Below, one piece after another: positions 1 to 63,800 of a stretch of 64,000 nt of DNA (position 1 is the stretch's first letter; each line of letters opens with the position of its first letter). Where the stretch lies: the NCBI RefSeq assembly GCF_002854065.1, contig NZ_CP024153.1, one strand, 5' to 3'. Source of the stretch: Escherichia coli. GTDB lineage: Bacteria; Pseudomonadota; Gammaproteobacteria; Enterobacterales; Enterobacteriaceae. Under the pieces are notes generated by a model, which had not been told where the DNA came from, ran no database searches, and saw nothing but the letters and a program-made list of their open reading frames with translations. Both the position numbers and the translations under genes were made by a program.

Positions 1-1610
1 GTATGCTCTGAGGACCTGTTTTATTAAGGACTCATCCCCTTATGTTGACCCGCAAAAGTATCGATACAGTTCTGCTCTCTGTTGGTGCTGAGAAGCTCTC
101 ACAACGAGAATGGGACTGGATGAAAATGCTCAAACCCATGGACCCACCACCTGCGATGGTGACGACCTCCATCCTGAAGCGCCGTGGCGATACAGCAGCC
201 CTTACCCTGCTACAGGATACCGGGGTTTAATCCATCCTCATGTTGTCCGGTTTTACTCCCCGCCCTCTGAAACGTCTGTTCACAGCCAACCAGTGCTGGA
301 CGTCCTTCCTGGATGCGGGCGGTCTGCGCGATATCGAGGTTGAAGCCGTCACCAAAATGCTGGCCTGCGGCACACGGATACTGGGTGTAAAAGAGTTCGG
401 GTGTGATAACCCGGACTGTCAGCACGTAAAGTACCTGACCAACTCATGCGGCAGCCGTGCCTGCCCGTCCTGCGGAAAGAAGGCCACAGACCTGTGGACA
501 GCAACACAGCTGAATCGTCTTCCTGACTGCGACTGGGTACATCTGGTCTTCACCCTGCCGGACACGCTGTGGCCGGTGTTCGAAAGCAACCGCTGGCTGC
601 TGAATGACGTGTGCCGTCTGGCGGTGGAGAATCTGCTGTATGCCGCCCGAAAACGGGGGCTGGAACCCGGTATCTTCTGCGCCATCCACACGTATGGCCG
701 TCGTCTCAACTGGCATCCGCATGTACATGTGTCTGTAACCTGTGGAGGTCTGAATAAGCATGGTCAGTGGAAAAAGCTGAGCTTCCTGAAAGACGCGATG
801 CGTTCACGGTGGATGTGGAATATGCGGCAGCTGCTTCTGAAAGCGTGGTCAGAGGGGATGGCAATGCCGGAGTCGTTGTCACATATCACGACGGAATCAC
901 AGTGGAGAAGCCTGGTGCTGAAATCCGGCGGAAAATACTGGCATGTGTACATGTCGAAGAAGACAGCCGGAGGGCGGAATACGGCACGCTACCTGGGTCG
1001 TTATCTGAAGAAGCCACCAATAGCGGCTTCCCGACTGGCTCATTACAACGGAGGGGCAAGCCTGAGCTTCCGTTACCTGGACCACAAAACGGGAGAAACG
1101 GCGACGGAAACGCTGACACAGCGTGAGCTGGTCGCGAGGCTGAAACAGCACATCCCGGAGAAGTTTTTTAAGATGGTGAGGTACTTCGGGTTCCTTGCCA
1201 ACCGTGTGTGTGGAGAGAAGCTGCCGCAGGTGTACCGTGCACTGGGGATGGATAAACCGGAACCAGTGGCGAAAGTGTGCTATGCACAAATGGTGAAACA
1301 GTTCCTGAGTCGTGACCCGTTCGAATGCGTGCTGTGTGGCTGCCGGATGGTATACCGCCGGGCCATTGCGGGGCTGAATGTATCAGGGCTGAAGAAAAAC
1401 GCGCGGGATATCAGTCTACTGAGGTATATGCCGGCCTGACACAGGCTAAGTGTGCCCGGGAATCGGTGAAAGTATAAAAAACAGCCTGTTACGGTATAAA
1501 AATCGACCATACAGAGAGGGAAACCACCGGAGTGGTGGGAAAAGCAGAAAGGCTCACGTGGCATAAGGCGTGGACAATGGTATCGACTGGTTTTTCAATT
1601 TCCTATACGT
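1..1610 (+). mobile_element. IS91-family rolling-circle IS (IS1294-like), copy 1; left end cut by window start
   Basis: Window starts inside the element; same sequence recurs inverted at 55327-56933; tnp-distal end ...cctatacgt at ~1610 followed by GAAC. Confidence 0.8.
240..1439 (+). CDS. tnpA: IS91-family (HUH, rolling-circle) transposase
   Basis: 399-aa ORF with Zn-finger-like CxxC...CPSCG and HUH motif (HPHVHV); identical copy at 55494-56693 (-), truncated copy at 13632-14579. Confidence 0.85.
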   Translation: MLSGFTPRPLKRLFTANQCWTSFLDAGGLRDIEVEAVTKMLACGTRILGVKEFGCDNPDCQHVKYLTNSCGSRACPSCGKKATDLWTATQLNRLPDCDWVHLVFTLPDTLWPVFESNRWLLNDVCRLAVENLLYAARKRGLEPGIFCAIHTYGRRLNWHPHVHVSVTCGGLNKHGQWKKLSFLKDAMRSRWMWNMRQLLLKAWSEGMAMPESLSHITTESQWRSLVLKSGGKYWHVYMSKKTAGGRNTARYLGRYLKKPPIAASRLAHYNGGASLSFRYLDHKTGETATETLTQRELVARLKQHIPEKFFKMVRYFGFLANRVCGEKLPQVYRALGMDKPEPVAKVCYAQMVKQFLSRDPFECVLCGCRMVYRRAIAGLNVSGLKKNARDISLLRYMPA

Positions 1611-1878
1611 CGAGAACTGGCTGGACAGAGGGCTAACGCGGCATGAAATTGCTGAAATCCTCGACAGCGAATACAGCTTTTCGGTAACAGCCAAAGGGCT
1701 TGAGATGGCACTGTATAGAACGCGGAAAAACCGAAAAAATGTATTGTACAACACACAACCGTCTGAGCCTGAAGCGCAGGAAAGTGAAAAAGCAGAGAGT
1801 CCCGGCATTATTGATAAAGAATTCTTCAATAAAATCGGTGAGGATTTCAACCCTAAGAAGTTCAACAAAAAATTCTGA
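1570..1878 (+). CDS. Hypothetical protein, 5' end possibly displaced by the IS1294 end
   Basis: 102-aa ORF whose first ~13 codons lie inside the IS end; no recognisable motif. Confidence 0.3.
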   Translation: MDNGIDWFFNFLYVENWLDRGLTRHEIAEILDSEYSFSVTAKGLEMALYRTRKNRKNVLYNTQPSEPEAQESEKAESPGIIDKEFFNKIGEDFNPKKFNKKF

Positions 1879-1886
1879 GGTGATTT

Positions 1887-2073
1887 ATGAAAGTAGCGGT
1901 AATTAATTACAGTGGCAGTGTTGGTAAAACCTTAATTTCATCTTACCTGTTAGCCCCGCGCCTGACTGGTGCAAAGTTCTATGCGGTAGAGACTATAAAC
2001 CAGTCTGCTTCCGATCTGGGTATTGAAAATGTGACCAGTTTTAAAGGTGACGACTTCTCACGTTTGATTGAGG
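1887..2073 (+). pseudogene. ParA/StbB-like ATPase, N-terminal fragment truncated by IS1
   Basis: MKVAVINYSGSVGKT deviant Walker-A start; RBS gaggtg upstream; ORF runs straight into the IS1 terminal repeat at 2074. Confidence 0.55.
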
Positions 2074-2088
2074 GGTAATGACTCCAAC

Positions 2089-2478
2089 TTACTGATAGTG
2101 TTTTATGTTCAGATAATGTCCAATGACTTTGTCATGCAGTTCTCCCTTCAGGCGTGATTCATAAAGCGGCCAGTCATCCGTCATCCATACCACGACCTCA
2201 AAGGCCGACAGCAGGCCCGGAAGACGCTCCAGCATGGCCAACGTGCGTTCACCGAATACGTGCGCCACAACCGTCCTCCGTATCCTGTCATACGCGTAAA
2301 ACAACCAGCGCTGGCGTGATTTAGCGCCGACGTAACCCCACTGTTCGTCCATTTCCGCGCAAACAATGACGTCACTGCCCGGTTGTATACGTGAGTTTAC
2401 CGACTGCGGCCTGAGTTTTTTAAGTGTCGTAAAATCGTGTTGAGGCCAATGCCCATAATGCGTGCACTGGCGCGGCAT
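2089..2478 (-). pseudogene. insB: IS1 InsB frame lacking ~38 internal codons
   Basis: ...[24 protein letters not shown]; the segment between LKGK and ELHDKV of canonical InsB (as recalled) is absent. Confidence 0.6.
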
Positions 2479-2672
2479 CCGACGCCATTCATGGCCATAT
2501 CAATAATTTTCTGGTGTGTACCGGGCTGAGAGGTGGTGTAAGTGAACTGTAGCTGCCATGTTTTACGGCAGTGAGAGCAGAGATAGCGCTGATGTCCGGC
2601 AGTACTTTTACCGTTACGCACCACGCCTTCAGTAGCTGAGCAGGAGGGACAACTGATGGAGATGGAAGCCAC
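2397..2672 (-). CDS. insA: IS1 InsA
   Basis: 91-aa [23 protein letters not shown]... Zn-finger N-terminus typical of InsA. Confidence 0.9.
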
Positions 2673-2859
2673 GGGAGCACCTCAAAAACACCATCATACA
2701 CTAAATCAGCAAGTTGGTAGCATTACCCAGAACTGGACAGAATAGGCTGTATGTCTAACTTCTGGCCACAGATATAATCGAGCCAGCAGTGCTCGCCGCA
2801 GCCGAGCGACAGGGCGAAGCCCCGAGTGAGCGAGGAAGCACCATGGAACAGTACTCATA

Positions 2860-3140
2860 AATTCTGCATACGCTCAATGCCTGCAAAATCACCTCCCCTA
2901 GGGGTTATCCACTTATCCACGGGGATATTTTTATAAGATCTTTTTAAATAGTTGTTAGATCTTTATTTTTAGAATGCCCACAGGCCTTTATCCATGCGGG
3001 TTCCAGAGAGGGATCTGTGACAAAACGCCCTTTCAGTGTGACAAATCACCCTCAAATAGCCGCCCTTTCTGTGACAAGTTGCCCTTAACCCTGTGACAAA
3101 TTGCCCTCAGGAAGCGTTGCTTTTCACAAAGTTATCCATC
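2860..3140. promoter_or_regulatory. ori2-like origin of RepFIA: DnaA boxes, AT-rich stretch, 19-bp iterons
   Basis: ttatccacttatccac DnaA boxes, AT-rich run, then tgtgacaaatcaccctc / tgtgacaagttgccc / tgtgacaaattgccctc direct repeats upstream of repE. Confidence 0.8.
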
Positions 3141-3148
3141 CCTGTTGA

Positions 3149-3961
<813 letters not shown>

Positions 3962-4160
3962 TTGAGGGCTATCTGTCACAGATTTAAGGGTGGTTCGTCA
4001 CATTTGATCTGGAAAGTTGAGGGTGATTTGTCACAGTTTTGCTGTTCCCTCCCTGGCATCCTGCGCTTACTCATAGTTTTTTTGGCTGTAACCGGTAGTG
4101 GAGCCAGAATTGAGGGCAATTTGTCACCCTATCCTGAGGGTAGTTTGTCACACTAGATTT
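3962..4160. repeat. incC-like iteron array downstream of repE
   Basis: Repeated gagggt/caatttgtcac motifs (reverse-oriented ori2-type iterons), cut by IS1 at 4175. Confidence 0.7.
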
Positions 4161-4174
4161 TCTCCCTCTTCCCG

Positions 4175-4600
4175 GGTAATGGTGCCAACTTACTGATTTA
4201 GTGTATGATGGTGTTTTTGAGGTGCTCCCGTGGCTTCCATCTCCATCAGTTGTCCCTCCTGCTCAGCTACTGAAGGCGTGGTGCGTAACGGTAAAAGTAC
4301 TGCCGGACATCAGCGCTATCTCTGCTCTCACTGCCGTAAAACATGGCAGCTACAGTTCACTTACACCGCCTCTCAGGCCGCAGTCGGTAAACTCACGCAT
4401 ACAACCGGGCAGTGACGTCATTGTTTGCGCGGAAATGGACGAACAGTGGGGTTACGTCGGCGCTAAATCACGCCAGCGCTGGTTGTTTTACGCGTATGAC
4501 AGGATACGGAGGACGGTTGTGGCACACGTCTTCGGTGAACGTACTATGGCCACGCTGGAGCATCTTCTGAGCCTGCCGTCGGACTTTCAGGGCGCGTGGT
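4175..4600 (+). mobile_element. IS1 remnant (left IR, truncated insA, part of insB; 3' end degenerate)
   Basis: IR ggtaatggtgccaacttactgat at 4175; InsA frame diverges after FTYT; InsB frame diverges after ...GERTMATL. Confidence 0.7.
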
Positions 4601-5323
4601 TCCTTTTAAACACCAGCTCTGTATCTCTTTTAAAGATCCTTTAATAAATTCTGTAAACCCATAATCTGTTCATCGCCTGCATTGTGGACCGGCTCGGGAG
4701 AATGCCCGCCCTTGCAGCTACCAGACGGTCGCACCGGTTCGGCAACACCAGAGAGAGCTCCCATCGCTTCGCGACGGGCCCCGACCGGAGAATTAAATTA
4801 GTTACAGCATTCATAATGATATTCATCATAAAACCGGCGCCGGTTTGCCGGCCCGGTGCCCCTCCCCACCACTGAAAAGCGCCGCCGCCCCCGCCCAAAG
4901 GGCGGGAACAACATCGCTTTTAATTATGAATGTTGTAACTACATCTTCATCGCTGTCAGTCTTCTCGCTGGAAGTATTGAGTACACGCTCGTAAGCGGCC
5001 CTGATGGCCCGCTAACGCGGAGATACGCCCCGACTTCGGGTAAACCCTCGTCGGGACCACTCCGACCGCGCACAAAAGCTCTGTCATGGCTGAAAGCAGG
5101 TATGGTCTGGCAGGGCAAGGGATGGGTAAGGTGAAATCTGTCAATCCGTACCGGCTTACGCCGGGCTTCGGCGGTTTTACTCCTGTATCATATGAAACAA
5201 CAGAGTGCCGCCTTCCATGCCGCTGATGCGGCATATCCTGGTAACGATATCTGAATTGTTATACATGTGTATATACGTGGTAATGACAAAAATAGGACAA
5301 GTTAAAAATTTACAGGCGATGCA

Positions 5324-5977
5324 ATGATTCAAACACGTAATCAATATCTGCAGTTTATGCTGGTTATACTGGCTGCATGGGGCATTAGTTGGGGAGCCAG
5401 ATTTGTCATGGAGCAGGCCGTTCTGCTTTATGGATCAGGAAAAAACTATTTGTTCTTCAGTCATGGTACTGTTCTGATGTACCTGCTGTGTGTTTTCCTA
5501 GTATACCGCCGTTGGATAGCTCCGCTACCGGTCGTTGGTCAGCTGCGCAACGTTGGCGTACCGTGGCTAGTCGGTGCGATGGCCGTGGTGTATGTCGGTG
5601 TATTTCTGCTCGGTAAGGCGCTGGCTCTGCCTGCTGAGCCATTTATGACGAAACTTTTTGCCGATAAGTCCATACCTGACGTGATCCTGACGTTGCTGAC
5701 CATCTTTATCCTTGCCCCGTTGAATGAGGAAACGCTGTTCCGGGGGATTATGCTGAACGTCTTCCGTTCACGGTACTGCTGGACGATGTGGCTGGGGGCG
5801 CTGATAACGTCGTTGTTGTTCGTCGCCGCGCACAGCCAGTATCAGAACCTGCTGACACTGGCAGAACTGTTCCTAGTGGGGTTGATTACATCAGTGGCCA
5901 GGATCAGAAGTGGTGGCCTGCTGCTGCCGGTATTGCTGCATATGGAAGCAACCACGCTGGGTTTACTGTTTGGTTGA
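5324..5977 (+). CDS. CPBP-family (CAAX/Abi-type) intramembrane metalloprotease
   Basis: 217-aa polytopic membrane protein with EExxFRG and HxxxN/HME motifs typical of CPBP proteases. Confidence 0.7.
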   Translation: MIQTRNQYLQFMLVILAAWGISWGARFVMEQAVLLYGSGKNYLFFSHGTVLMYLLCVFLVYRRWIAPLPVVGQLRNVGVPWLVGAMAVVYVGVFLLGKALALPAEPFMTKLFADKSIPDVILTLLTIFILAPLNEETLFRGIMLNVFRSRYCWTMWLGALITSLLFVAAHSQYQNLLTLAELFLVGLITSVARIRSGGLLLPVLLHMEATTLGLLFG

Positions 5978-6069
5978 AAGTTATATTTTTATTAAACATT
6001 GTGCGTTAAAGCCTGGTGTGTTTTTTTAGTGGATGTTATATTTAAATATAACTTTTATGGAGGTGAAGA

Positions 6070-6327
6070 ATGCATACCACCCGACTGAAGAGGGTTGGCG
6101 GCTCAGTTATGCTGACCGTCCCACCGGCACTGCTGAATGCGCTGTCTCTGGGTACAGATAATGAAGTTGGCATGGTCATTGATAATGGCCGGCTGATTGT
6201 TGAGCCGTACAGACGCCCGCAATATTCACTGGCTGAGCTACTGGCACAGTGTGATCCGAATGCTGAAATATCAGCTGAAGAACGAGAATGGCTGGATGCA
6301 CCGGCGACTGGTCAGGAGGAAATCTGA
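6070..6327 (+). CDS. pemI: PemI antitoxin (MazE/AbrB fold)
   Basis: 85 aa, MHTTRLKRVGGSVMLTVPPALL...; stop overlaps pemK start. Confidence 0.9.
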   Translation: MHTTRLKRVGGSVMLTVPPALLNALSLGTDNEVGMVIDNGRLIVEPYRRPQYSLAELLAQCDPNAEISAEEREWLDAPATGQEEI

Positions 6328-6328
6328 C

Positions 6329-6661
6329 ATGGAAAGAGGGGAAATCTGGCTTGTCTCGCTTGATCCTACCGCAGGTCATGAGCAGCAGGGAACGCGGCCG
6401 GTGCTGATTGTCACACCGGCGGCCTTTAATCGCGTGACCCGCCTGCCTGTTGTTGTGCCCGTAACCAGCGGAGGCAATTTTGCCCGTACTGCCGGCTTTG
6501 CGGTGTCGTTGGATGGTGTTGGCATACGTACCACAGGTGTTGTACGTTGCGATCAACCCCGGACAATTGATATGAAAGCACGGGGCGGAAAACGACTCGA
6601 ACGGGTTCCGGAGACTATCATGAACGAAGTTCTTGGCCGCCTGTCCACTATTCTGACTTGA
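6329..6661 (+). CDS. pemK: PemK endoribonuclease toxin (MazF family)
   Basis: MERGEIWLVSLDPTAGHEQQGTRPVLIV... 110 aa; the listed ORF start at 6197 is an upstream in-frame extension. Confidence 0.9.
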   Translation: MERGEIWLVSLDPTAGHEQQGTRPVLIVTPAAFNRVTRLPVVVPVTSGGNFARTAGFAVSLDGVGIRTTGVVRCDQPRTIDMKARGGKRLERVPETIMNEVLGRLSTILT

Positions 6662-6945
6662 ACATGGGGTTTGAGGGGCAACCGGATGAAAACGTACGAT
6701 TTAGGGCACTAAAACCGCTGTTGTCCCACCATTCTGGTGATTCCCAAACGTTATTTGGCTAAAAAGTAGTTTTGATGTGGTTTATTTTCCGAATTCCAAG
6801 CGCAGCCCTACTTTCTTGTGCGTATTTGCGTGTTTTGCGCAGTTTTGAAGTTCCTACATCAGATTGACTTCGGATACAAATTCAATGAACATTGATGCAA
6901 ATACTGACCTATCAGTTTCTTAACTAAATACTCGAGATACATCTA

Positions 6946-8718
6946 ATGGCTAATGAAAACTTAGATATTGACTCCAAGACAGCAGAAGAATTATACGAGT
7001 GGTATCTGGATGATAAATTAATTATAAATCGAAGATACCAAAGAAAATTAGTATGGTCCCTCGAAGAGAAAACAGCACTGATTTCATCAATGACTCAGCA
7101 ATACCCTATCCCTTTGCTATTGTTTGTTTCCATTGACAACAAAAGAGAAATCCTTGATGGAATGCAAAGACTAGAAGCTTTAATGAGTTTTATTGAGCAG
7201 CGATTTTCATTAAATGGTAAATACTTTAATTTAGATGCCATTGCATTAACAAAACAACTAAAAGACAGTGGTAAACTTCAACAAAAAGAGCCAGTGCTAT
7301 CCCGCGAAAGTTCTACATTAATTGCTCGCTATAGATTTGCTATATCTGAATACTCTTCAACAGAGGACCACATTGACGAAGTGTTTCGACGCATAAATTC
7401 CAATGGTAAAATTTTATCAAAACAAGAACTACGAAGTGCGGGGTGCGTTAGTAATTTTTCAGAGTTAGTAAGGAAAATATCGACAATTATAAGAGGAGAT
7501 ACTACACATAGCGATATAATGGGACTGAATAAAATACATAACATATCAATTTGCAATGATGGACTCGATTATGGAATAAATATAGACAATCATTTCTATA
7601 TTAGAAATCATATCATTAGTAGGCCTAGCATTAGAGACTCTGACGATGAAGAGTTAGTTGCAAATATCTTGGGCTATATATTTTTAGATGATAAGCCAAC
7701 ATCAGGATCAACATCGCTCGATACATTTTACGGTGAAGGTTCGACGAGTCATGCAATCCATACACGAACTCAATTAGAGAATTACATTCAGACAAATGGT
7801 GCAGATAAAATTGTCAATAATTACCTCTTCGTTTATGAGATGATTCAAAAATTATTTGATGCAAATAATTTGAACTTTAGATCACACATTCTGGGCAATG
7901 CATCTTCATCTCAAGAATGTCCTCGTTACTATCAAGCTGTTTTTCTTGCTTTGTATGAATTAATCATAAATGAAAACATGCAACTTGACGATGAACAGAA
8001 ATTTATCGCTCAGTTAGGAGACAGTGTACAACGTTCAATGGTGCAAACCGAAGGGGGCCGTTGGGCAGCTAGCGCTCGTCAGAAAAGTGTCGAAGATTTA
8101 TGTGCTTTAATCAGACGATATTTTAAAGAATCAGAAAATAAATTTATCAATCATGCTTGGCAAACACTGATAAGAACTCTACTTAATAACTCAAGAACAG
8201 AACAACCAAATTATGATTTTAAACAGGGATTATTTATTCTCTCAGGCGAGAATAAAATAGACGAAGAATGTTTCATTAATATAGTCCAAACGGCTGTCGC
8301 CATAAATAACATCGGTAGAGAATCTAATGGTTATATTTTAGTTGGTGTTTCCGATACCAAAGCTACGGCAGACAGAGTTAAGGCTTTATATGGTGTTACC
8401 CCTATTGAGTGCAATGGCTATTATATCAATGGAATTGATCATGAAGCTGTAATTCAATCAAAAAACATAGATAATTACTTTCTGTTCATAAAACAAAAAA
8501 TAGAATCATTTAATTTTAATGAGGCTTTGAAACAACAAATACTAAAAGATATTTCATTATGTTCATATGAAGGACTGCATGTTTTAAAAATCGAAATAAA
8601 AAGTGTCGGAGAAGTCTGTCATTTTGAAAATAGGTATTATATAAGACAAGGAACAGCTACACATTTAATCACTGACGGTGAAGCAATTAGTAGTTTACAC
8701 AGATTATATTACTCATAA
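6946..8718 (+). CDS. DUF262 (ParB-like nuclease superfamily) domain protein, 590 aa; candidate defence gene
   Basis: N-terminal RRYQRKLVWSLEEK ... ILDGMQRLEAL (DGQQR-type motif); about 30% GC versus about 50% flanks; C-terminal half uncharacterised. Confidence 0.75.
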   Translation: MANENLDIDSKTAEELYEWYLDDKLIINRRYQRKLVWSLEEKTALISSMTQQYPIPLLLFVSIDNKREILDGMQRLEALMSFIEQRFSLNGKYFNLDAIALTKQLKDSGKLQQKEPVLSRESSTLIARYRFAISEYSSTEDHIDEVFRRINSNGKILSKQELRSAGCVSNFSELVRKISTIIRGDTTHSDIMGLNKIHNISICNDGLDYGINIDNHFYIRNHIISRPSIRDSDDEELVANILGYIFLDDKPTSGSTSLDTFYGEGSTSHAIHTRTQLENYIQTNGADKIVNNYLFVYEMIQKLFDANNLNFRSHILGNASSSQECPRYYQAVFLALYELIINENMQLDDEQKFIAQLGDSVQRSMVQTEGGRWAASARQKSVEDLCALIRRYFKESENKFINHAWQTLIRTLLNNSRTEQPNYDFKQGLFILSGENKIDEECFINIVQTAVAINNIGRESNGYILVGVSDTKATADRVKALYGVTPIECNGYYINGIDHEAVIQSKNIDNYFLFIKQKIESFNFNEALKQQILKDISLCSYEGLHVLKIEIKSVGEVCHFENRYYIRQGTATHLITDGEAISSLHRLYYS

Positions 8719-12341: not shown

Positions 12342-15035
<2,694 letters not shown>

Positions 15036-48470: not shown

Positions 48471-48586
48471 TAAAAATCGACCATACAGAGAGGGAAACCA
48501 CCGGAGTGGTGGGAAAAGCAGAAAGGCTCACGTGGCATAAGGCGTGGACAATGGTATCGACTGGTTTTTCAATTTCCTATACGTGA
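48471..48586 (+). mobile_element. IS1294-like terminal fragment (tnp-distal end only, about 116 bp)
   Basis: Identical to 1495-1610; ends ...cctatacgt followed by gaac. Confidence 0.85.
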
Positions 48587-51919: not shown

Positions 51920-52601
51920 TCAGACGGGATTTTGCTTATCAATTATTGAGAACAGAAATTTTCCTGAATCATCAATACTATACTTAGCAAGTAAAGGTGT
52001 TTTCTCATTTATCTGCTTGAGAGCAGGATCAAGGAAAGATCGTTTCAACTCTGCCAAGTTCTTCTGTTGGGATTCCGGCAAAAGGAAACGGTCATTTAAC
52101 CAAGCATGAGTAGTAACCCATAAGCCTGAAGATTTGAATTGAGCAAGACTTTCATAAAGGCGGATCGTCCGTGGATTTCGAAGACTGCCACAATCGCGGA
52201 GCGAGTAGGTGGTGAACTGGTTCGTCAGGCCGTAAATGTACCGCAGGAGTTTATGGTTAAATTCGATTTCCCAGATACCACGAGCTGATCGGCTGCCAGC
52301 CTCTGTTAGCCAGGGGCGCGCGACGCAGTCAAAACTCCCTTCTTTCGGGTAAAAGATTACCGCAGAACGGCTTAACTCAAACACGCCTTCTTTAACATCC
52401 TTGATAGCCTGGTTACGGCTTACCTGAAAAATTTGCTGATAGTCAGCCACCTTTACTTTGAAAGTAGAGTCACCGAGTACAGCCATCTCATCATCATCTT
52501 CGCTTACTGAAGCTGTGAAATACGTCTGCATAAGACATAACCAGAGAACGCGCTTTGCTTTTAGCGAGAGGTAGTAAGCAGCTTCGGTAAGCTCGTTAGA
52601 C
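51920..52601 (-). pseudogene. Rep_3-family (RepE-like) replication initiator, 5'-truncated by IS26
   Basis: ...[23 protein letters not shown]... (parallels Rep[22 protein letters not shown]); frame enters IS26 right end. Confidence 0.65.
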
Positions 52602-53421
52602 GGCACTGTTGCAAAGTTAGCGATGAGGCAGCCTTTTGTCTTATTCAAAGGCCTTACATTTCAAAAACTCTGCTTACCAGGCGCATTTCGCCCAGGGGAT
52701 CACCATAATAAAATGCTGAGGCCTGGCCTTTGCGTAGTGCACGCATCACCTCAATACCTTTGATGGTGGCGTAAGCCGTCTTCATGGATTTAAATCCCAG
52801 CGTGGCGTTGATTATCCGTTTCAGTTTGCCATGATCGCATTCAATCACGTTGTTCCGGTACTTAATCTGTCGGTGTTCAACGTCAGACGGGCACCGGCCT
52901 TCGCGTTTGAGCAGAGCAAGCGCGCGACCATAGGCGGGCGCTTTATCCGTGTTGATGAATCGTGGGATCTGCCACTTCTTCACGTTGTTGAGGATTTTAC
53001 CCAGAAACCGGTATGCAGCTTTGCTGTTACGACGGGAGGAGAGATAAAAATCGACAGTGCGGCCCCGGCTGTCGACGGCCCGGTACAGATACGCCCAGCG
53101 GCCATTGACCTTCACGTAGGTTTCATCCATGTGCCACGGGCAAAGATCGGAAGGGTTACGCCAGTACCAGCGCAGCCGTTTTTCCATTTCAGGCGCATAA
53201 CGCTGAACCCAGCGGTAAATCGTGGAGTGATCGACATTCACTCCGCGTTCAGCCAGCATCTCCTGCAGCTCACGGTAACTGATGCCGTATTTGCAGTACC
53301 AGCGTACGGCCCACAGAATGATGTCACGCTGAAAATGCCGGCCTTTGAATGGGTTCATGTGCAGCTCCATCAGCAAAAGGGGATGATAAGTTTATCACCA
53401 CCGACTATTTGCAACAGTGCC
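52602..53421 (-). mobile_element. IS26 copy F (N184 variant)
   Basis: 820 bp; tnp26 52654-53358; RIINATLG. Confidence 0.95.
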
Positions 53422-54474: not shown

Positions 54475-54726
54475 ATGAGCTATCAAATTCTGACAACCAC
54501 AGCGGCCAGTATTACTGACCTGAAAAAAAATCCTATGGGAACCGTAGCTGAAGGTGAAGGGGACGCTGTTGCGATCCTGAACCGAAACGAACCGGCGTTC
54601 TATTGCGTTCCACCAAAACTTTACGCCTACTATCGGGAACTCGCTGAAGATGCTGAGTTAAACGCTGTTGCTGATGAGCGCATGAAAAACCCGGAAATTG
54701 TGAAGGTTAACCTGGATGACCTATGA
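54475..54726 (+). CDS. stbD: StbD/RelB-type antitoxin (Phd/YefM family)
   Basis: 83 aa MSYQILTTTAASITDLKKNPMGTVAEGEGDAVAILNRNEPAFYCV... Confidence 0.8.
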   Translation: MSYQILTTTAASITDLKKNPMGTVAEGEGDAVAILNRNEPAFYCVPPKLYAYYRELAEDAELNAVADERMKNPEIVKVNLDDL

Positions 54727-54997
54727 ACTGGCTTTTGACCGCAGAGCACTGAAGGAATGGCAGAAACTCGGCCACACCATCCGTGAACAATTCAAAAAGA
54801 AGCTGGCAGAACGGCTGGAAAATCCACGCGTACCCGCAGCCCGGTTACATGGTCATGCTGATCGCTATAAAATCAAACTTCGTGCATCTGGCTACAGACT
54901 TGTATATCAAGTCATTGATGAGAAAGTCGTTTTACTCGTTATTGCTGTTGGAAGAAGGGAAAGCAGCGAAGTTTATCAGATTGCAGATATGCGCTGA
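54716..54997 (+). CDS. stbE: StbE/RelE-type toxin
   Basis: 93 aa MTYELAFDRRALKEWQKLGHTIREQFKKKLAERLENPRVPAARL...; overlaps stbD stop. Confidence 0.8.
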   Translation: MTYELAFDRRALKEWQKLGHTIREQFKKKLAERLENPRVPAARLHGHADRYKIKLRASGYRLVYQVIDEKVVLLVIAVGRRESSEVYQIADMR

Positions 54998-55183: not shown

Positions 55184-55326
55184 GGCACTGTTGCAAAGTT
55201 AGCGATGAGGCAGCCTTTTGTCTTATTCAAAGGCCTTACATTTCAAAAACTCTGCTTACCAGGCGCATTTCGCCCAGGGGATCACCATAATAAAATGCTG
55301 AGGCCTGGCCTTTGCGTAGTGCACGT
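55184..55326 (-). mobile_element. IS26 fragment (right IR and 3' end of tnp26), cut by IS1294
   Basis: ggcactgttgcaaagttagcg... to ...gcgtagtgcacg then IS1294 end. Confidence 0.85.
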
Positions 55327-57006
55327 ATAGGAAATTGAAAAACCAGTCGATACCATTGTCCACGCCTTATGCCACGTGAGCCTTTCTGCTTTTCCCACCA
55401 CTCCGGTGGTTTCCCTCTCTGTATGGTCGATTTTTATACCGTAACAGGCTGTTTTTTATACTTTCACCGATTCCCGGGCACACTTAGCCTGTGTCAGGCC
55501 GGCATATACCTCAGTAGACTGATATCCCGCGCGTTTTTCTTCAGCCCTGATACATTCAGCCCCGCAATGGCCCGGCGGTATACCATCCGGCAGCCACACA
55601 GCACGCATTCGAACGGGTCACGACTCAGGAACTGTTTCACCATTTGTGCATAGCACACTTTCGCCACTGGTTCCGGTTTATCCATCCCCAGTGCACGGTA
55701 CACCTGCGGCAGCTTCTCTCCACACACACGGTTGGCAAGGAACCCGAAGTACCTCACCATCTTAAAAAACTTCTCCGGGATGTGCTGTTTCAGCCTCGCG
55801 ACCAGCTCACGCTGTGTCAGCGTTTCCGTCGCCGTTTCTCCCGTTTTGTGGTCCAGGTAACGGAAGCTCAGGCTTGCCCCTCCGTTGTAATGAGCCAGTC
55901 GGGAAGCCGCTATTGGTGGCTTCTTCAGATAACGACCCAGGTAGCGTGCCGTATTCCGCCCTCCGGCTGTCTTCTTCGACATGTACACATGCCAGTATTT
56001 TCCGCCGGATTTCAGCACCAGGCTTCTCCACTGTGATTCCGTCGTGATATGTGACAACGACTCCGGCATTGCCATCCCCTCTGACCACGCTTTCAGAAGC
56101 AGCTGCCGCATATTCCACATCCACCGTGAACGCATCGCGTCTTTCAGGAAGCTCAGCTTTTTCCACTGACCATGCTTATTCAGACCTCCACAGGTTACAG
56201 ACACATGTACATGCGGATGCCAGTTGAGACGACGGCCATACGTGTGGATGGCGCAGAAGATACCGGGTTCCAGCCCCCGTTTTCGGGCGGCATACAGCAG
56301 ATTCTCCACCGCCAGACGGCACACGTCATTCAGCAGCCAGCGGTTGCTTTCGAACACCGGCCACAGCGTGTCCGGCAGGGTGAAGACCAGATGTACCCAG
56401 TCGCAGTCAGGAAGACGATTCAGCTGTGTTGCTGTCCACAGGTCTGTGGCCTTCTTTCCGCAGGACGGGCAGGCACGGCTGCCGCATGAGTTGGTCAGGT
56501 ACTTTACGTGCTGACAGTCCGGGTTATCACACCCGAACTCTTTTACACCCAGTATCCGTGTGCCGCAGGCCAGCATTTTGGTGACGGCTTCAACCTCGAT
56601 ATCGCGCAGACCGCCCGCATCCAGGAAGGACGTCCAGCACTGGTTGGCTGTGAACAGACGTTTCAGAGGGCGGGGAGTAAAACCGGACAACATGAGGATG
56701 GATTAAACCCCGGTATCCTGTAGCAGGGTAAGGGCTGCTGTATCGCCACGGCGCTTCAGGATGGAGGTCGTCACCATCGCAGGTGGTGGGTCCATGGGTT
56801 TGAGCATTTTCATCCAGTCCCATTCTCGTTGTGAGAGCTTCTCAGCACCAACAGAGAGCAGAACTGTATCGATACTTTTGCGGGTCAACATAAGGGGATG
56901 AGTCCTTAATAAAACAGGTCCTCAGAGCATACATATTCTGCGGGGCGTGCGGCAACAACAGGACGAACCGGGGCGGTTTTCAATTTGCAGCCGCCAGGCT
57001 GCCGTG
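55327..57006 (-). mobile_element. IS91-family IS (IS1294-like), copy 3; outer boundary approximate
   Basis: Inverted duplicate of 1-1610; outer end assumed near the IS50 junction at about 57006. Confidence 0.75.
55494..56693 (-). CDS. tnpA: IS91-family transposase
   Basis: Identical 399-aa protein to 240-1439. Confidence 0.85.
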   Translation of the reverse strand: MLSGFTPRPLKRLFTANQCWTSFLDAGGLRDIEVEAVTKMLACGTRILGVKEFGCDNPDCQHVKYLTNSCGSRACPSCGKKATDLWTATQLNRLPDCDWVHLVFTLPDTLWPVFESNRWLLNDVCRLAVENLLYAARKRGLEPGIFCAIHTYGRRLNWHPHVHVSVTCGGLNKHGQWKKLSFLKDAMRSRWMWNMRQLLLKAWSEGMAMPESLSHITTESQWRSLVLKSGGKYWHVYMSKKTAGGRNTARYLGRYLKKPPIAASRLAHYNGGASLSFRYLDHKTGETATETLTQRELVARLKQHIPEKFFKMVRYFGFLANRVCGEKLPQVYRALGMDKPEPVAKVCYAQMVKQFLSRDPFECVLCGCRMVYRRAIAGLNVSGLKKNARDISLLRYMPA

Positions 57007-59457: not shown

Positions 59458-60277
59458 GGCACTGTTGCAAATAGTCGGTGGTGATAAACTTATCATCCCC
59501 TTTTGCTGATGGAGCTGCACATGAACCCATTCAAAGGCCGGCATTTTCAGCGTGACATCATTCTGTGGGCCGTACGCTGGTACTGCAAATACGGCATCAG
59601 TTACCGTGAGCTGCAGGAGATGCTGGCTGAACGCGGAGTGAATGTCGATCACTCCACGATTTACCGCTGGGTTCAGCGTTATGCGCCTGAAATGGAAAAA
59701 CGGCTGCGCTGGTACTGGCGTAACCCTTCCGATCTTTGCCCGTGGCACATGGATGAAACCTACGTGAAGGTCAATGGCCGCTGGGCGTATCTGTACCGGG
59801 CCGTCGACAGCCGGGGCCGCACTGTCGATTTTTATCTCTCCTCCCGTCGTAACAGCAAAGCTGCATACCGGTTTCTGGGTAAAATCCTCAACAACGTGAA
59901 GAAGTGGCAGATCCCACGATTCATCAACACGGATAAAGCGCCCGCCTATGGTCGCGCGCTTGCTCTGCTCAAACGCGAAGGCCGGTGCCCGTCTGACGTT
60001 GAACACCGACAGATTAAGTACCGGAACAACGTGATTGAATGCGATCATGGCAAACTGAAACGGATAATCAACGCCACGCTGGGATTTAAATCCATGAAGA
60101 CGGCTTACGCCACCATCAAAGGTATTGAGGTGATGCGTGCACTACGCAAAGGCCAGGCCTCAGCATTTTATTATGGTGATCCCCTGGGCGAAATGCGCCT
60201 GGTAAGCAGAGTTTTTGAAATGTAAGGCCTTTGAATAAGACAAAAGGCTGCCTCATCGCTAACTTTGCAACAGTGCC
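59458..60277 (+). mobile_element. IS26 copy G (N184 variant)
   Basis: 820 bp; tnp26 59521-60225; RIINATLG. Confidence 0.95.
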
Positions 60278-60316
60278 CCAAAAAGAACAAGATTCACCGC
60301 AACCCAGGACACTGCC

Positions 60317-60796
60317 ATGTTAGATTACCGCTTCCCGACAGCTTTGCAGATGGTTCTCAGCGTAGCAATGGCGGAGCAGATGGGTGAACGTTCGACGAGT
60401 GCGATTCTGGCCTACGGCCTGGAAGCGAACCCGAGCTTTATCCGTAAACTAATGGTTCCGCTAACTCGTGACGGCATTATCGTCTCCACGCTTGGTCGCA
60501 ACGGCTCAATTCATCTTGGCCGTCCGGCGGACAAGATCACCCTGCGTGATATCTATCTTTCGGTTATCGAAGATAAAAAACTGTGGGCGTCGCGTCCTGA
60601 CGTCCCGGCCCGCTGCGTGGTCAGCGCCAACGCCTGCTGGTACTTCAAATCGGTTGCCGATGAAGCAGAGCAGGCTTCGTTAAACGTCCTCGCTCGCCAT
60701 ACCGTGGCCAGCGCGCTGGAGGCGGTCAAAAACGCCGATACCAGCGGCTGCGACCCGGTGCCGGAAATGATCGCCCGCTTTAAAAAAGCGCATTAA
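60317..60796 (+). CDS. oqxR: OqxR, Rrf2-family repressor of oqxAB
   Basis: 159-aa Rrf2-type HTH protein convergent with oqxB; IS26 upstream as in the plasmid-borne oqxAB unit. Confidence 0.8.
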   Translation: MLDYRFPTALQMVLSVAMAEQMGERSTSAILAYGLEANPSFIRKLMVPLTRDGIIVSTLGRNGSIHLGRPADKITLRDIYLSVIEDKKLWASRPDVPARCVVSANACWYFKSVADEAEQASLNVLARHTVASALEAVKNADTSGCDPVPEMIARFKKAH

Positions 60797-60810
60797 TCAT
60801 TTTCTGGTGA

Positions 60811-60852
60811 CGAAAAAAAACCGCCTTCAAATTGTGAAGGCGGTTTTTTTGT
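60811..60852. terminator. Bidirectional rho-independent terminator between oqxR and oqxB
   Basis: A-run, stem accgccttca...tgaaggcggt, T-run. Confidence 0.8.
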
Positions 60853-60865
60853 TATCTGCTGCAGG

Positions 60866-63800
60866 CTAGGCGGGCAGATCCTCCTGGACCGGCTTCCTGC
60901 GGGTCACCAGTTTCCGTAGCGTCACGTAAAACACCGGCGTCAGGAACAGACCGAAGAGCGTCACGCCCAGCATCCCGGAGAACACCGTGATCCCGGTGAC
61001 GCCGCGGACTTCCGCCCCCGCGCCGTGGCCGAGGATCAGCGGAATGGTCCCGGCGATAAAGGCGATGGAGGTCATCACGATCGGGCGCAGACGCAGGCGG
61101 CATGCCTCCAGCGCCGCTTCCATGATGCCTTTCCCCTGGATCTCCAGCTCGCGGGCAAACTCGACGATCAGAATGGCGTTTTTACAGGCCAGGCCCATCA
61201 GGACCACCAGACCCACCTGCACGAAGACGTTGTTATCGCCCCCGGTCAGCCAGACGCCAAACAGCGCGGAGAGCATCGTCATCGGTACGATAAGGATCAC
61301 CGCCAGCGGCAGGGTCCAGCTTTCATACAGCGCGGCCAGTACGAGGAATGCCAGCAGCACCGCCACCGGGAAGACGATCAGCGCCGTGTTGCCCTGGGTG
61401 GCCTGCTGGAAGCTGAGATCCGTCCACTCAATATTCATCCCATTCGGCAGGATCTGCTTCGACAGCTCTTCCAGATGCGTCATCGCCTGCGAAGAAGAGA
61501 GGACCCGCGGATCGGCATCGCCAATCAGGTCCGCCGCCGGATAACCGTTGTAGCGGATCACCGGATCCGGCCCGTAGGTGGTACTGATATTCACCATACT
61601 GCCGATCGGTACCATTTCGCCCTGATTATTGCGGGTGCGCAGATTGGCGATATCTTCCACGCTCTCGCGGTATGGTCCGTCAGCCTGGGCCATCACGCGC
61701 CAGGTACGCCCGAACTGGTTAAAGTCATTGACATAAGACGAGCCGAGATAGGTCTGCAGCGTACCGAACAGATCGGTTAGCGATACCCCCTGCGCTTTCG
61801 CCTTATCGCGATCGACCTGCACGTCCAGCTGCGGCACGTTAGCCTGGTAAGTCGAGATCGGGAAGTGCATCCCCGGCGTCTGCATAATCGCCCCGGACAT
61901 CGCATTCACCGCGCTTTGCAGCGCGCCATAGCCCAGCCCTCCGCGATCCTGGATGTACAGGGAGTAGCCGGAACCCTGACCCAGACCTAAAATCGGCGGC
62001 GGCAGGATGGAAAAGCCAAAGCCCTGCTGGATTTGCGCGATTTTGGCGTTGATCTCCGCGTTAATTTCCGCCGCCGTGTGTTTGCGCTGGTCGAACGGTT
62101 TCAGGCCAAAAAAGACCGTCCCGGTATTCGGCGTGTTGGTGAACTGCAGCGCGTTAAGCCCCGGGAAAGCGACCGCATAGTCGACCCCTTCGGTATTCAT
62201 CCCGATCTCGCTCATTTTGCGGATCACCGCGTCGGTGCGCGCCAGCGACGACCCTTCCGGCATCTTCACGCCGCCAATGAGATACAGCTTATCCTGGGTG
62301 GGAATAAACCCGCCGGGGACGACTTTAAACATCACCCCAGCGGCGCAGAGCAGCAGCAGGTACACCGCAAACACTGCGCCACGGCGTCCAAGCGTTTTGC
62401 CTACCAGTCCCTGATAGCCGTTCGAGCTGCGCAGGAAAAAGCGGTTAAACGGACGGAAAATCCAGCCAAACAGGCGATCGATCAGCCGGGTAGGGAGGTC
62501 TTTCTTCGCGCCGTGCGGCTTTAACAGCAGGGCCGCCAGCGCCGGGGAGAGCGTCAGCGAGTTGATGGCCGAGATCACCGTCGAGATGGCGATGGTCACC
62601 GCGAACTGTTTGTAGAACTGGCCGGTGACCCCGGAGAGAAACGCCATCGGCACGAACACCGCACACAGCACCAGCGCAATGGCGATAATCGGCCCGGAGA
62701 CCTCACGCATCGCCTGATGCGCCGCGGCAAGCGGCGCAAGCCCCTCTTCGATATTACGCTCGACGTTCTCCACCACCACGATGGCGTCGTCCACCACGAT
62801 ACCGATAGCCAGTACCAGCCCGAACAGGCTCAGGGTATTCAGCGAGAAGCCCAGCAGATAGAGAATGCTGAAGGTACCCACCACCGATACCGGCACAGCG
62901 ATCAACGGGATAATCGACGCGCGCCAGGTCTGCAGGAACAGGATCACTACCAGCACCACCAGCACTACCGCCTCCAGCAGCGTCTGCACCACCGCGCGGA
63001 TGGAGTCGCGGACGAAAACCGTCGGGTCGTACGGCGCCGCCCATTGCATATCTTCCGGGAAGCGGGTGGCCAGCTCGGCCATTTTGGCGCGTACCGCGTT
63101 CGACAGATCGATGGCGTTAGCGCCGGGTGACTGGAAGATACCGATCCCGACCGCATCCTTATTGTTGAGCTGGGAGCGCAGCGCATAGCTACCGGAACCC
63201 ATCTCGATGCGCGCCACGTCGCGCAGGCGGACCAGCGAGCCATCCTGCGCCGTTTTCAGAATGATATTGCCAAACTCTTCTTCGGTATGCAGACGGCCCT
63301 GGGCGTTAATGGAGATCAGGAAATCGCTCTCCTGCGGCAGCGGCTCGGCGCCAAGCTGTCCGGCAGACACCTGGACGTTTTGCTCCTGCATCGCCGTCAC
63401 CACATCCGAGGCCGTCAGACCGCGGGCAGCGACCTTATTGGGATCCAGCCAGACGCGCATCGCATATTCACCGGAGCCAAAAATCTGGATCTGGCCGACG
63501 CCGGGCAGGCGCGCCAGCTCATCCTTCACTTTCAGCGTGGCGTAGTTGCGCATATACAGCGAGTCGTACTTCCCGCCGGGGGAGAACAGATGCACCACCA
63601 GGGTCAGCGTCGGAGACTGCTTCTGGGTGGTGATCCCCAGACGGCGTACATCCTCCGGCAGACGCGCTTCGGCCTGCGCGACGCGGTTCTGCACCTGAAC
63701 CTGCGCCTGATCCGGGTCGGTACCCGGGCGGAAGGTGACGGTGGTGACCAGCACGCCGTCGGAGCCGGCGACCGATTTCATGTACATCATGTTTTCAACG

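Follow-up and report, generated by a model that had tools for sequence, protein, structure and literature searches.

How does an F-like replication unit come to stand between two insertion sequences (ISs) without partition or ccd genes, and is it an accessory or the principal replicon of its plasmid? The question is raised by Escherichia coli contig NZ_CP024153.1, of which a stretch of 64,000 nt (the window) was analysed. An ori2–repE–incC unit lies there between two derivatives of IS1, and the initial annotation had proposed that this RepFIA copy might be a captured accessory replicon. Comparison with other plasmids makes it very probable that positions 2074–4573 represent the widespread 'IncFIA(HI1)' module, i.e. 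a minimal RepFIA-like iteron replicon of the R27 type, bounded by two decayed IS1 copies that would have excised it from a full F-type maintenance region. The module itself has long been known, is very common in resistance plasmids and implies nothing biologically new; only a lineage-specific operator base and the proposed in situ loss of IncFII initiator genes, both described below, are slightly out of the ordinary. The RepFIA-like minimal replicon owes its first description to the IncHI1 plasmid R27, and 'IncFIA(HI1)' is the name of its PlasmidFinder allele.

A complete replicon of the R27 type

Positions 2728–4174 hold a complete minimal iteron replicon with DnaA boxes, four ori2 iterons, an intact repE and five incC iterons (Table 1). 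When the ori2 region was aligned with its counterparts in F and Klebsiella, mean column identity was 94%. The encoded RepE, a Rep_3 initiator, is 96% identical to F RepE and scored 533.2 bits (cut-off, 342) against the NCBIfam RepE equivalog NF010305, with the match covering residues 1–251 of 251.

In F (NC_002483.1), the RepFIA elements follow the same order as in the window: DnaA boxes, A+T-rich region, four iterons, operator, repE and five incC iterons. The two differ in their incC spacers, which have diverged, and in their surroundings, as F carries ccdAB–resD upstream and sopABC downstream, none of which is present in the window. At the nucleotide level, the replicon is 99.1% (99.08%) identical to R27 over 1300 bp, with 12 substitutions, but only 87.8% identical to F RepFIA, which identifies it as the R27-type allele rather than F's own RepFIA.

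The repression operator of repE departs from its counterparts at one base. In the operator inverted repeat (~3160–3190), the left half reads TGTGAAAA in place of the conserved core TGTGACAA, reflecting a C-to-A change at position 3169. The A is shared with three E. coli relatives (L001, L002 and L008) and absent from R27 (where the base is C), pHCM1, F, two Klebsiella plasmids with an uncut RepFIA region (see below), EcPF16 p1 and AR_0049 unitig_3. This substitution could weaken autorepression by RepE.

The 2507-bp module (2074–4580) was found in 340 plasmid records at a coverage of at least 80%, and the replicon alone in 475 plasmid records at an identity of at least 99%. A larger block (1610–5287) is present in at least 73 plasmid records, from Escherichia, Shigella and Klebsiella, and R27-type copies occur in Salmonella IncHI1 plasmids. 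In IncFIB(K)/IncFIA(HI1)/IncX1 and related hybrid resistance plasmids such as pPE15-IncF (NZ_CP041629.1), pG3X16-2-3 (NZ_CP038140.1) and pVE-F5_1 (NZ_AP027954.1), the larger block matched the window at 99.1–100%; it comprises stbA, stbB′, an IS1 derivative, RepFIA, an IS1 remnant and an IncFII remnant, and includes both IS1 deletions described below as well as the A at 3169. The hybrids differ from the window in what lies outside the block: the place of the IS91-family element upstream is taken by IS903B and a RepB initiator, and downstream, the resistance regions differ. One of these matches, pG3X16-2-3, has been counted among widespread IncFIB(K)/IncFIA(HI1)/IncX1 hybrid plasmids (PMC7190383).

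Probable separation from an F-type maintenance region

Searches for the missing maintenance genes were negative across the window. Queries for CcdA, CcdB, SopA and SopB, taken from F and Klebsiella, returned no match anywhere in the 64 kb (tblastn), nor did the sopC-bearing stretch of F that follows sopB (blastn); ResD matched only an integron integrase within the 64 kb, at 39% identity over 54–63 amino acids (aa; tblastn). The absence of sopABC and ccdAB from the window, as noted in the initial annotation, was thereby confirmed.

Two Klebsiella pneumoniae plasmids, pHK31_2 (NZ_CP073908.1) and INF354 plasmid 3 (NZ_LR890371.1), are respectively 96.1% and 93.5% identical to the window over 2756–4174 and retain the region uncut. 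Their homology to the window reaches the IS1 insertion point at 4174, where the Klebsiella plasmids have no IS1. Upstream of the replicon, they encode ccdA–ccdB, a hypothetical gene and a site-specific integrase; downstream follow additional incC iterons, missing in the window, and then AAA-ATPase/ParB (SopA/SopB-type) partition genes. The incC/IS1 junction at 4174/4175, in turn, agrees base for base between the window and R27, with ...CTCTTCCCG running into GGTAATGGTGCCAAC... (also written as ...CTCTTCCCG into GGTAATGGTGCC...). The gene order of the uncut Klebsiella plasmids, together with this shared junction, indicates that IS1 cut an ori2–repE–incC unit of ~1.4–1.6 kb from a full F-type maintenance region, in line with the idea of a captured replicon.

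The initial annotation had also considered that sop or ccd genes might be hidden by an assembly break at IS1. Indeed, IS1 is a multicopy element at which short-read assemblies often break, and in such an artefact reads would have been collapsed at IS1 while sop and ccd truly adjoin the replicon. This is almost certainly not the case, however, as the structure recurs in the 340 plasmid records mentioned above, and complete plasmids assembled independently from E. coli, Shigella, Klebsiella and Salmonella show the same junctions, both internal deletions and the fusion of IS1 to IncFII DNA. Besides, the incC/IS1 junction is present in the R27 reference sequence, and the IS1 remnant in the window is not a full repeat able to collapse reads.

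Two decayed IS1 copies

For comparison, the K-12 element IS1A (768 bp, from NC_000913.3) was searched against the window using BLAST. Right of the replicon, IS1A positions 1–201 matched 4175–4375 (91.5% identity; E = 9e-77) and positions 313–521 matched 4372–4580 (89.0%; E = 3e-71). IS1 positions 1–521 are hence packed into 406 bp, which amounts to a 115-bp internal deletion at a CTCA microhomology. Its first base is 4175, where the left inverted repeat (IRL), GGTAATGGTGCC, begins. Its deletion shifts the insA frame after codon ~49, resulting in an open reading frame (ORF; 4230–4415) of 61 rather than 91 aa, and removes the A6C slippery site, which is needed for the InsAB′ transposase. IS1 identity ends at ~4573–4586, that is 399–412 bp into the element; the right inverted repeat (IRR) is missing together with the rest of the 3′ ~250 bp, and insB is truncated.

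Left of the replicon, IS1A positions 1–593 matched 2727–2135 (89.2%) and positions 703–768 matched 2139–2074 (95.5%), with five bases of overlap between the two matches. This copy contains an intact insA (91 aa, 2397–2672) and a 114-bp in-frame deletion between AGCTGCA repeats (IS1 ~594–702), by which insB has lost 38 codons from its C-terminal part. The 9 bp on either side of this copy, tgattgagg and cagaactgg, are unlike each other and thus form no target duplication. The two copies are inverted relative to each other, and the insA-proximal ends (IRL) of both face the replicon. Compared with each other over their shared segments, they reach 97.6% and 94.7% identity, as against only ~89–92% to IS1A and ~90–93% to the IS1 copies of R27.

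Neither copy thus retains what a functional IS1 has: the right one possesses only an IRL and no transposase frame, and the left one a deleted insB. Accordingly, in a relative with 100% identity, the Prokaryotic Genome Annotation Pipeline (PGAP) calls both copies pseudogenes, the right one being described as 'frameshifted; incomplete; missing C-terminus'. The initial annotation was therefore right to call the second IS1 degenerate and to place the replicon between two IS1 derivatives of opposite orientation, yet the left derivative is defective as well, and the loss of IS1 similarity in the right one, real as it is, sets in somewhat later than the ~390 bp that had been estimated.

Related plasmids carry these copies in other states of decay. 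In EcPF16 p1 from E. coli, the same IS1/IncFII fusion occurs with a right IS1 that does not have the 115-bp deletion (L015 4448–4968), and the left IS1 is cut down to 147 bp (L015 2854–3000). AR_0049 unitig_3 from K. pneumoniae has positions 202–312 deleted from each of its inverted IS1 copies (L013 3001–3538 and 4986–5390), which suggests gene conversion between the inverted repeats.

With internal deletions in both IS1 copies, the module is expected to transpose no longer and to travel only within its host plasmid. Two IS1-derived elements around a discrete cargo, in a block that is found in many plasmid backbones, may nonetheless bring to mind a composite transposon that currently carries the replicon from plasmid to plasmid. 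We regard such an active transposon as very improbable. Apart from the right copy having neither an IRR nor a transposase frame and the left insB being 38 codons short, the ends abutting the cargo are two IRLs with the IS interiors facing away, so that no pair of ends properly brackets the block. Target duplications of 8–9 bp are seen neither in the window nor around the intact IS1 pair of R27 (GGACGAAAT vs CAGTAATGC). Finally, the stbB′ and IncFII-remnant flanks accompany the block in at least 73 plasmids, and flanks as constant as these argue for inheritance with the backbone, or for movement by recombination at IS26 or IS1 copies, rather than for transposition.

Relationship to the R27 form

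The RepFIA-like replicon of R27 (NC_002305.1, ~156.5–158.2 kb) resembles that of the window in having IS1 on both sides and no sop or ccd genes, and its RepE is only a few residues apart from the window protein, under a different WP accession. According to PMC4853401, an IS1b end adjoins incC, the E protein of the RepFIA-like region is functional and binds incC, and incompatibility with F is reported. The same source presents the region as a third, dispensable replicon, R27 being replication-proficient after its deletion, whereas deletion of incC alone destabilised the plasmid (PMC4853401).

Several observations weigh against the preferred reading. While the two IS1 copies of R27 are complete and lie in direct orientation, those of the window are deleted derivatives in inverted orientation; the left IS1 of the window is inverted with respect to that of R27 and lies 88 bp closer to ori2, and 13 bp at 2728–2740 do not match R27. 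R27 incC is made up of 3.5 tandem copies of a 55-bp two-iteron unit (L005 7660–7849), whereas incC in the window (3962–4152) shows no detectable tandem array, corresponds to ~1.5 units and has five iterons as in F, which leaves it ~110 bp and four iterons short of R27. Moreover, following an identical first ~55 bp, the IS1 that follows the shared junction diverges from its R27 counterpart by ~8%, implying either that the IS1 body was exchanged by recombination or that the ancestry shared with R27 is less direct than assumed. Lastly, it is the additional RepFIB(K), IncX1, IncR or HI1 replicons of relatives, and not this molecule, that prompt the term 'accessory'.

A later exchange between IS1 isoforms is the simplest account of the ~8% divergence in IS1. 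A window form that arose as a simple deletion product of the present R27 form is ruled out by the inverted left IS1, the 13-bp mismatch and the incC repeat number. On the strength of these comparisons, the window form is best understood as a sister of the present R27 form, and not as its descendant.

Fusion to a decapitated IncFII origin

From ~4574 onward, the right IS1 gives way to IncFII DNA. Positions 4574–5081 are 89% identical to a stretch of p1220-CTXM that starts 238 bp past the repA1 stop codon, and 4858–7000 are 99.5% identical to the origin–CPBP protease–pemI–pemK region of p14EC007b. The IncFII remnant is itself a mosaic, with a Klebsiella-type portion (4574–4857, 89%) and an E. 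coli-type portion (4858 onward, 99.5%).

In three intact IncFII replicons, a perfect DnaA box (TTATCCACA) lies ~175 bp past repA1, and IncFII homology in the window starts 64 bp beyond the position of this oriR DnaA box. tblastn with IncFII RepA1 and CopB returned no match anywhere in the window. Lacking repA1 and copB, and with homology that starts only past the DnaA box, the IncFII replicon has been decapitated. What remains continues into the CPBP protease gene, pemI and pemK, which intact IncFII plasmids carry after their origin, and pemIK is the only complete stability system adjoining the replicon.

IS1 and IncFII DNA meet within ~30 bp of partial similarity (window 4560–4600; IS1 ~510–540), where IS1 reads TGCTGTCGGCCTTCGAGGTCGTGGT and IncFII TGCCGTCGGACTTTCAAGGCGCGTGGT. 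The junction also occurs in EcPF16 p1 and in K. pneumoniae AR_0049 unitig_3. Such a patch of similarity at the crossover suggests that recombination, illegitimate or homeologous, made the joint, and not the transposition chemistry of IS1.

Accessory or principal replicon

RepFIA(HI1) is the only intact replicon in the 64-kb window. A search of the window with RepB (FIB), RepA1 and CopB (FII), ParA/ParB, Sop and Ccd queries (tblastn), combined with NCBIfam and Pfam scans of its ORFs, retrieved merely a 5′-truncated IncN repA and truncated stbAB. Rather than being accessory, RepFIA(HI1) might be a working, possibly the principal, replicon here, which would have replaced the deleted IncFII copB–copA–repA1, perhaps helped by the change at 3169. 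In support of this, no other replicon in the 64 kb is intact: the IncFII part is devoid of repA1 and of the oriR DnaA box, and the IncN repA of its first ~13 codons. In addition, the unit occupies the place of the IncFII rep genes, upstream of the CPBP protease gene and pemIK, and the C-to-A change in the operator core TGTGACAA sets the window and its E. coli relatives apart from R27, F and Klebsiella.

On balance, we consider a principal role unlikely. Close relatives encode a RepB (IncFIB-type) initiator ~3.4 kb upstream, some of them with annotated sopA/ParB, and all close relatives were typed with at least one further replicon. R27 is reported to stay replication-proficient without its RepFIA-like sequences (PMC4853401). 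The left side of the window, moreover, has been replaced by an IS91-family element, and other replicons may lie outside the window.

A bolder version would have a fossil R27-type replicon re-activated as a principal replicon in this E. coli hybrid-plasmid lineage, having replaced the IncFII initiator genes in situ, with autorepression loosened by the lineage-specific change at 3169 and copy control relaxed by the four fewer incC iterons. This scenario is quite improbable. If true, 'IncFIA(HI1)' would act as a tuned driver of how epidemic tet(X4)/oqxAB/sul3 plasmids are maintained and which hosts they can use, and not as a passive typing marker.

Proposed origin and operation

For the preferred reading, that of a captured R27-type replicon, we propose a course of events based on sequence comparison, and a mode of operation based on conserved anatomy and on published work on F and R27. 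The starting point would be an ancestral Klebsiella-type RepFIA region with the order ccdAB–resD–ori2–repE–incC–sopAB. IS1 may have entered the incC iteron array, creating the junction held in common with R27, and another IS1-mediated event may have stripped everything left of ori2, the outcome being an ori2–repE–incC unit of 1.4–1.6 kb without partition or ccd genes. This unit would then have moved into F-type and hybrid plasmids, probably via homologous recombination through IS1 copies. In the present lineage, the right IS1 would have become joined, across ~30 bp that are partly homologous, from its position ~514 to a point midway in an IncFII oriR, with loss of copB–copA–repA1, and microhomology deletions of ~115 bp would subsequently have occurred in both IS1 copies.

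As to its operation, RepE monomers are predicted to bind the four ori2 iterons and, together with DnaA at the two boxes, to open the A+T-rich region, while RepE dimers would repress repE at its operator. The five incC iterons would cap copy number by titration or handcuffing. Segregational stability would have to come from elsewhere, namely from the nearby pemIK, other toxin–antitoxin genes and a partition system encoded beyond the window.

Neighbouring features of the window

The coordinates of the replicon and of the features around it are compiled in Table 1. On the left lie the remnants of an stbA–stbB stability operon, where the terminus of an IS91-family element at 1609/1610 cuts the 5′ end of stbA, and homology to the relatives starts at 1610. 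stbB′ was recognised from its residues 1–62, which match positions 1–61 of the 233-residue NCBIfam StbB profile (84 bits; cut-off, 200). The IS91-family element, which encodes a transposase of 399 aa, recurs across the window as several whole or partial copies with 100% identity: 1–1610 is the reverse complement of 55323–56932 (100%), 663–1610 that of 13632–14579, and the 114-bp end at 1497–1610 is found again at 48471–48584.

Table 1. Annotated features of the RepFIA(HI1) region and of selected loci elsewhere in the window
Feature	Position	Strand	Evidence or remark
IS91-family element end	1–1609	+	Transposase 240–1439; NCBIfam transpos_IS91, 309.6 bits
stbA, 5′ end replaced at 1609/1610	1570–1878	+	NCBIfam StbA_2, 122.9 bits (cut-off, 100); annotated stbA in relatives
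stbB′, first ~62 of 233 codons, cut by left IS1	1887–2073	+	NCBIfam StbB
Left IS1 derivative	2074–2727	–	654 bp; both inverted repeats kept
ori2 region	2728–3205	+	Iteron scan; alignment with F and Klebsiella; operator comparison
Tandem DnaA boxes, TTATCCACTTATCCAC	~2906–2921		Identical to those of F
A+T-rich stretch with two GATC sites	2922–3010		
Four 19-bp ori2 iterons, direct	3016–3110		0–5 mismatches to consensus
repE promoter and operator inverted repeat	~3140–3185		C-to-A at 3169
repE	3206–3961	+	Intact 251-aa iteron-binding initiator; WP_000807690.1, annotated repE in relatives
incC	3962–4174	+	Five 19-bp iterons in orientation opposite to ori2, then 22 bp to the IS1 junction
incC iterons	3962–3980, 3985–4003, 4017–4035, 4110–4128, 4134–4152		Iteron scan
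Right IS1 remnant	4175–4573	+	IRL and IS1 positions 1–201 joined to ~317–514
IncFII origin-region remnant	4574–5323	+	No copB, tap or repA1
CPBP intramembrane protease	5324–5977	+	NCBIfam; annotation of relatives
pemI	6070–6327	+	NCBIfam; annotation of relatives
pemK	6329–6661	+	NCBIfam; annotation of relatives
IncN repA	51923–52603	–	Residues 14–239 100% identical; IS26 (end at ~52604) took the first ~13 codons and the promoter
ParE-type toxin ORF	54716–54997		Pfam ParE_toxin, E = 3e-14

From ~6.9 to 64 kb, the window consists of an IS26-rich resistance mosaic that includes a mer operon, sul3, integron integrase genes, tet(A)/tetR and qnrS, as well as arr, catB, blaOXA-1, aac(6′)-Ib, dfrA12, aadA, ble, aph(3′)-IIa and oqxB. 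Within it, the IncN repA is, judging by its truncation, a dead remnant that would still be typed as IncN; ~110 bp downstream of it lie a Tn21-type inverted repeat and an IS110-family element. A segment with Rrf2 and oqxB (59738–63228) matches pPE15-IncF DNA ~500 bp past the point that corresponds to window position 5287, and in the window ~54 kb, mostly of resistance mosaic, lie between that point and the Rrf2–oqxB segment. Downstream of pemK, an ORF of 590 aa (6946–8718) had no NCBIfam match and, by the annotation of relatives, carries a DUF262/GmrSD restriction endonuclease domain; it is a possible candidate for a backbone gene directed against phages or modified DNA.

Implications for plasmid typing and annotation

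Replicon typing would call this plasmid 'IncFIA(HI1)' plus 'IncN', even though the IncN repA is truncated. For annotators, the FIA call means an R27-type, IS1-bounded minimal replicon without a partition or ccd system of its own; both flanking IS1 copies are dead, and the adjoining IncFII DNA is a remnant rather than a replicon. As the decay states of the IS1 copies and their junctions are common to hundreds of resistance plasmids, the module serves as a convenient lineage marker.

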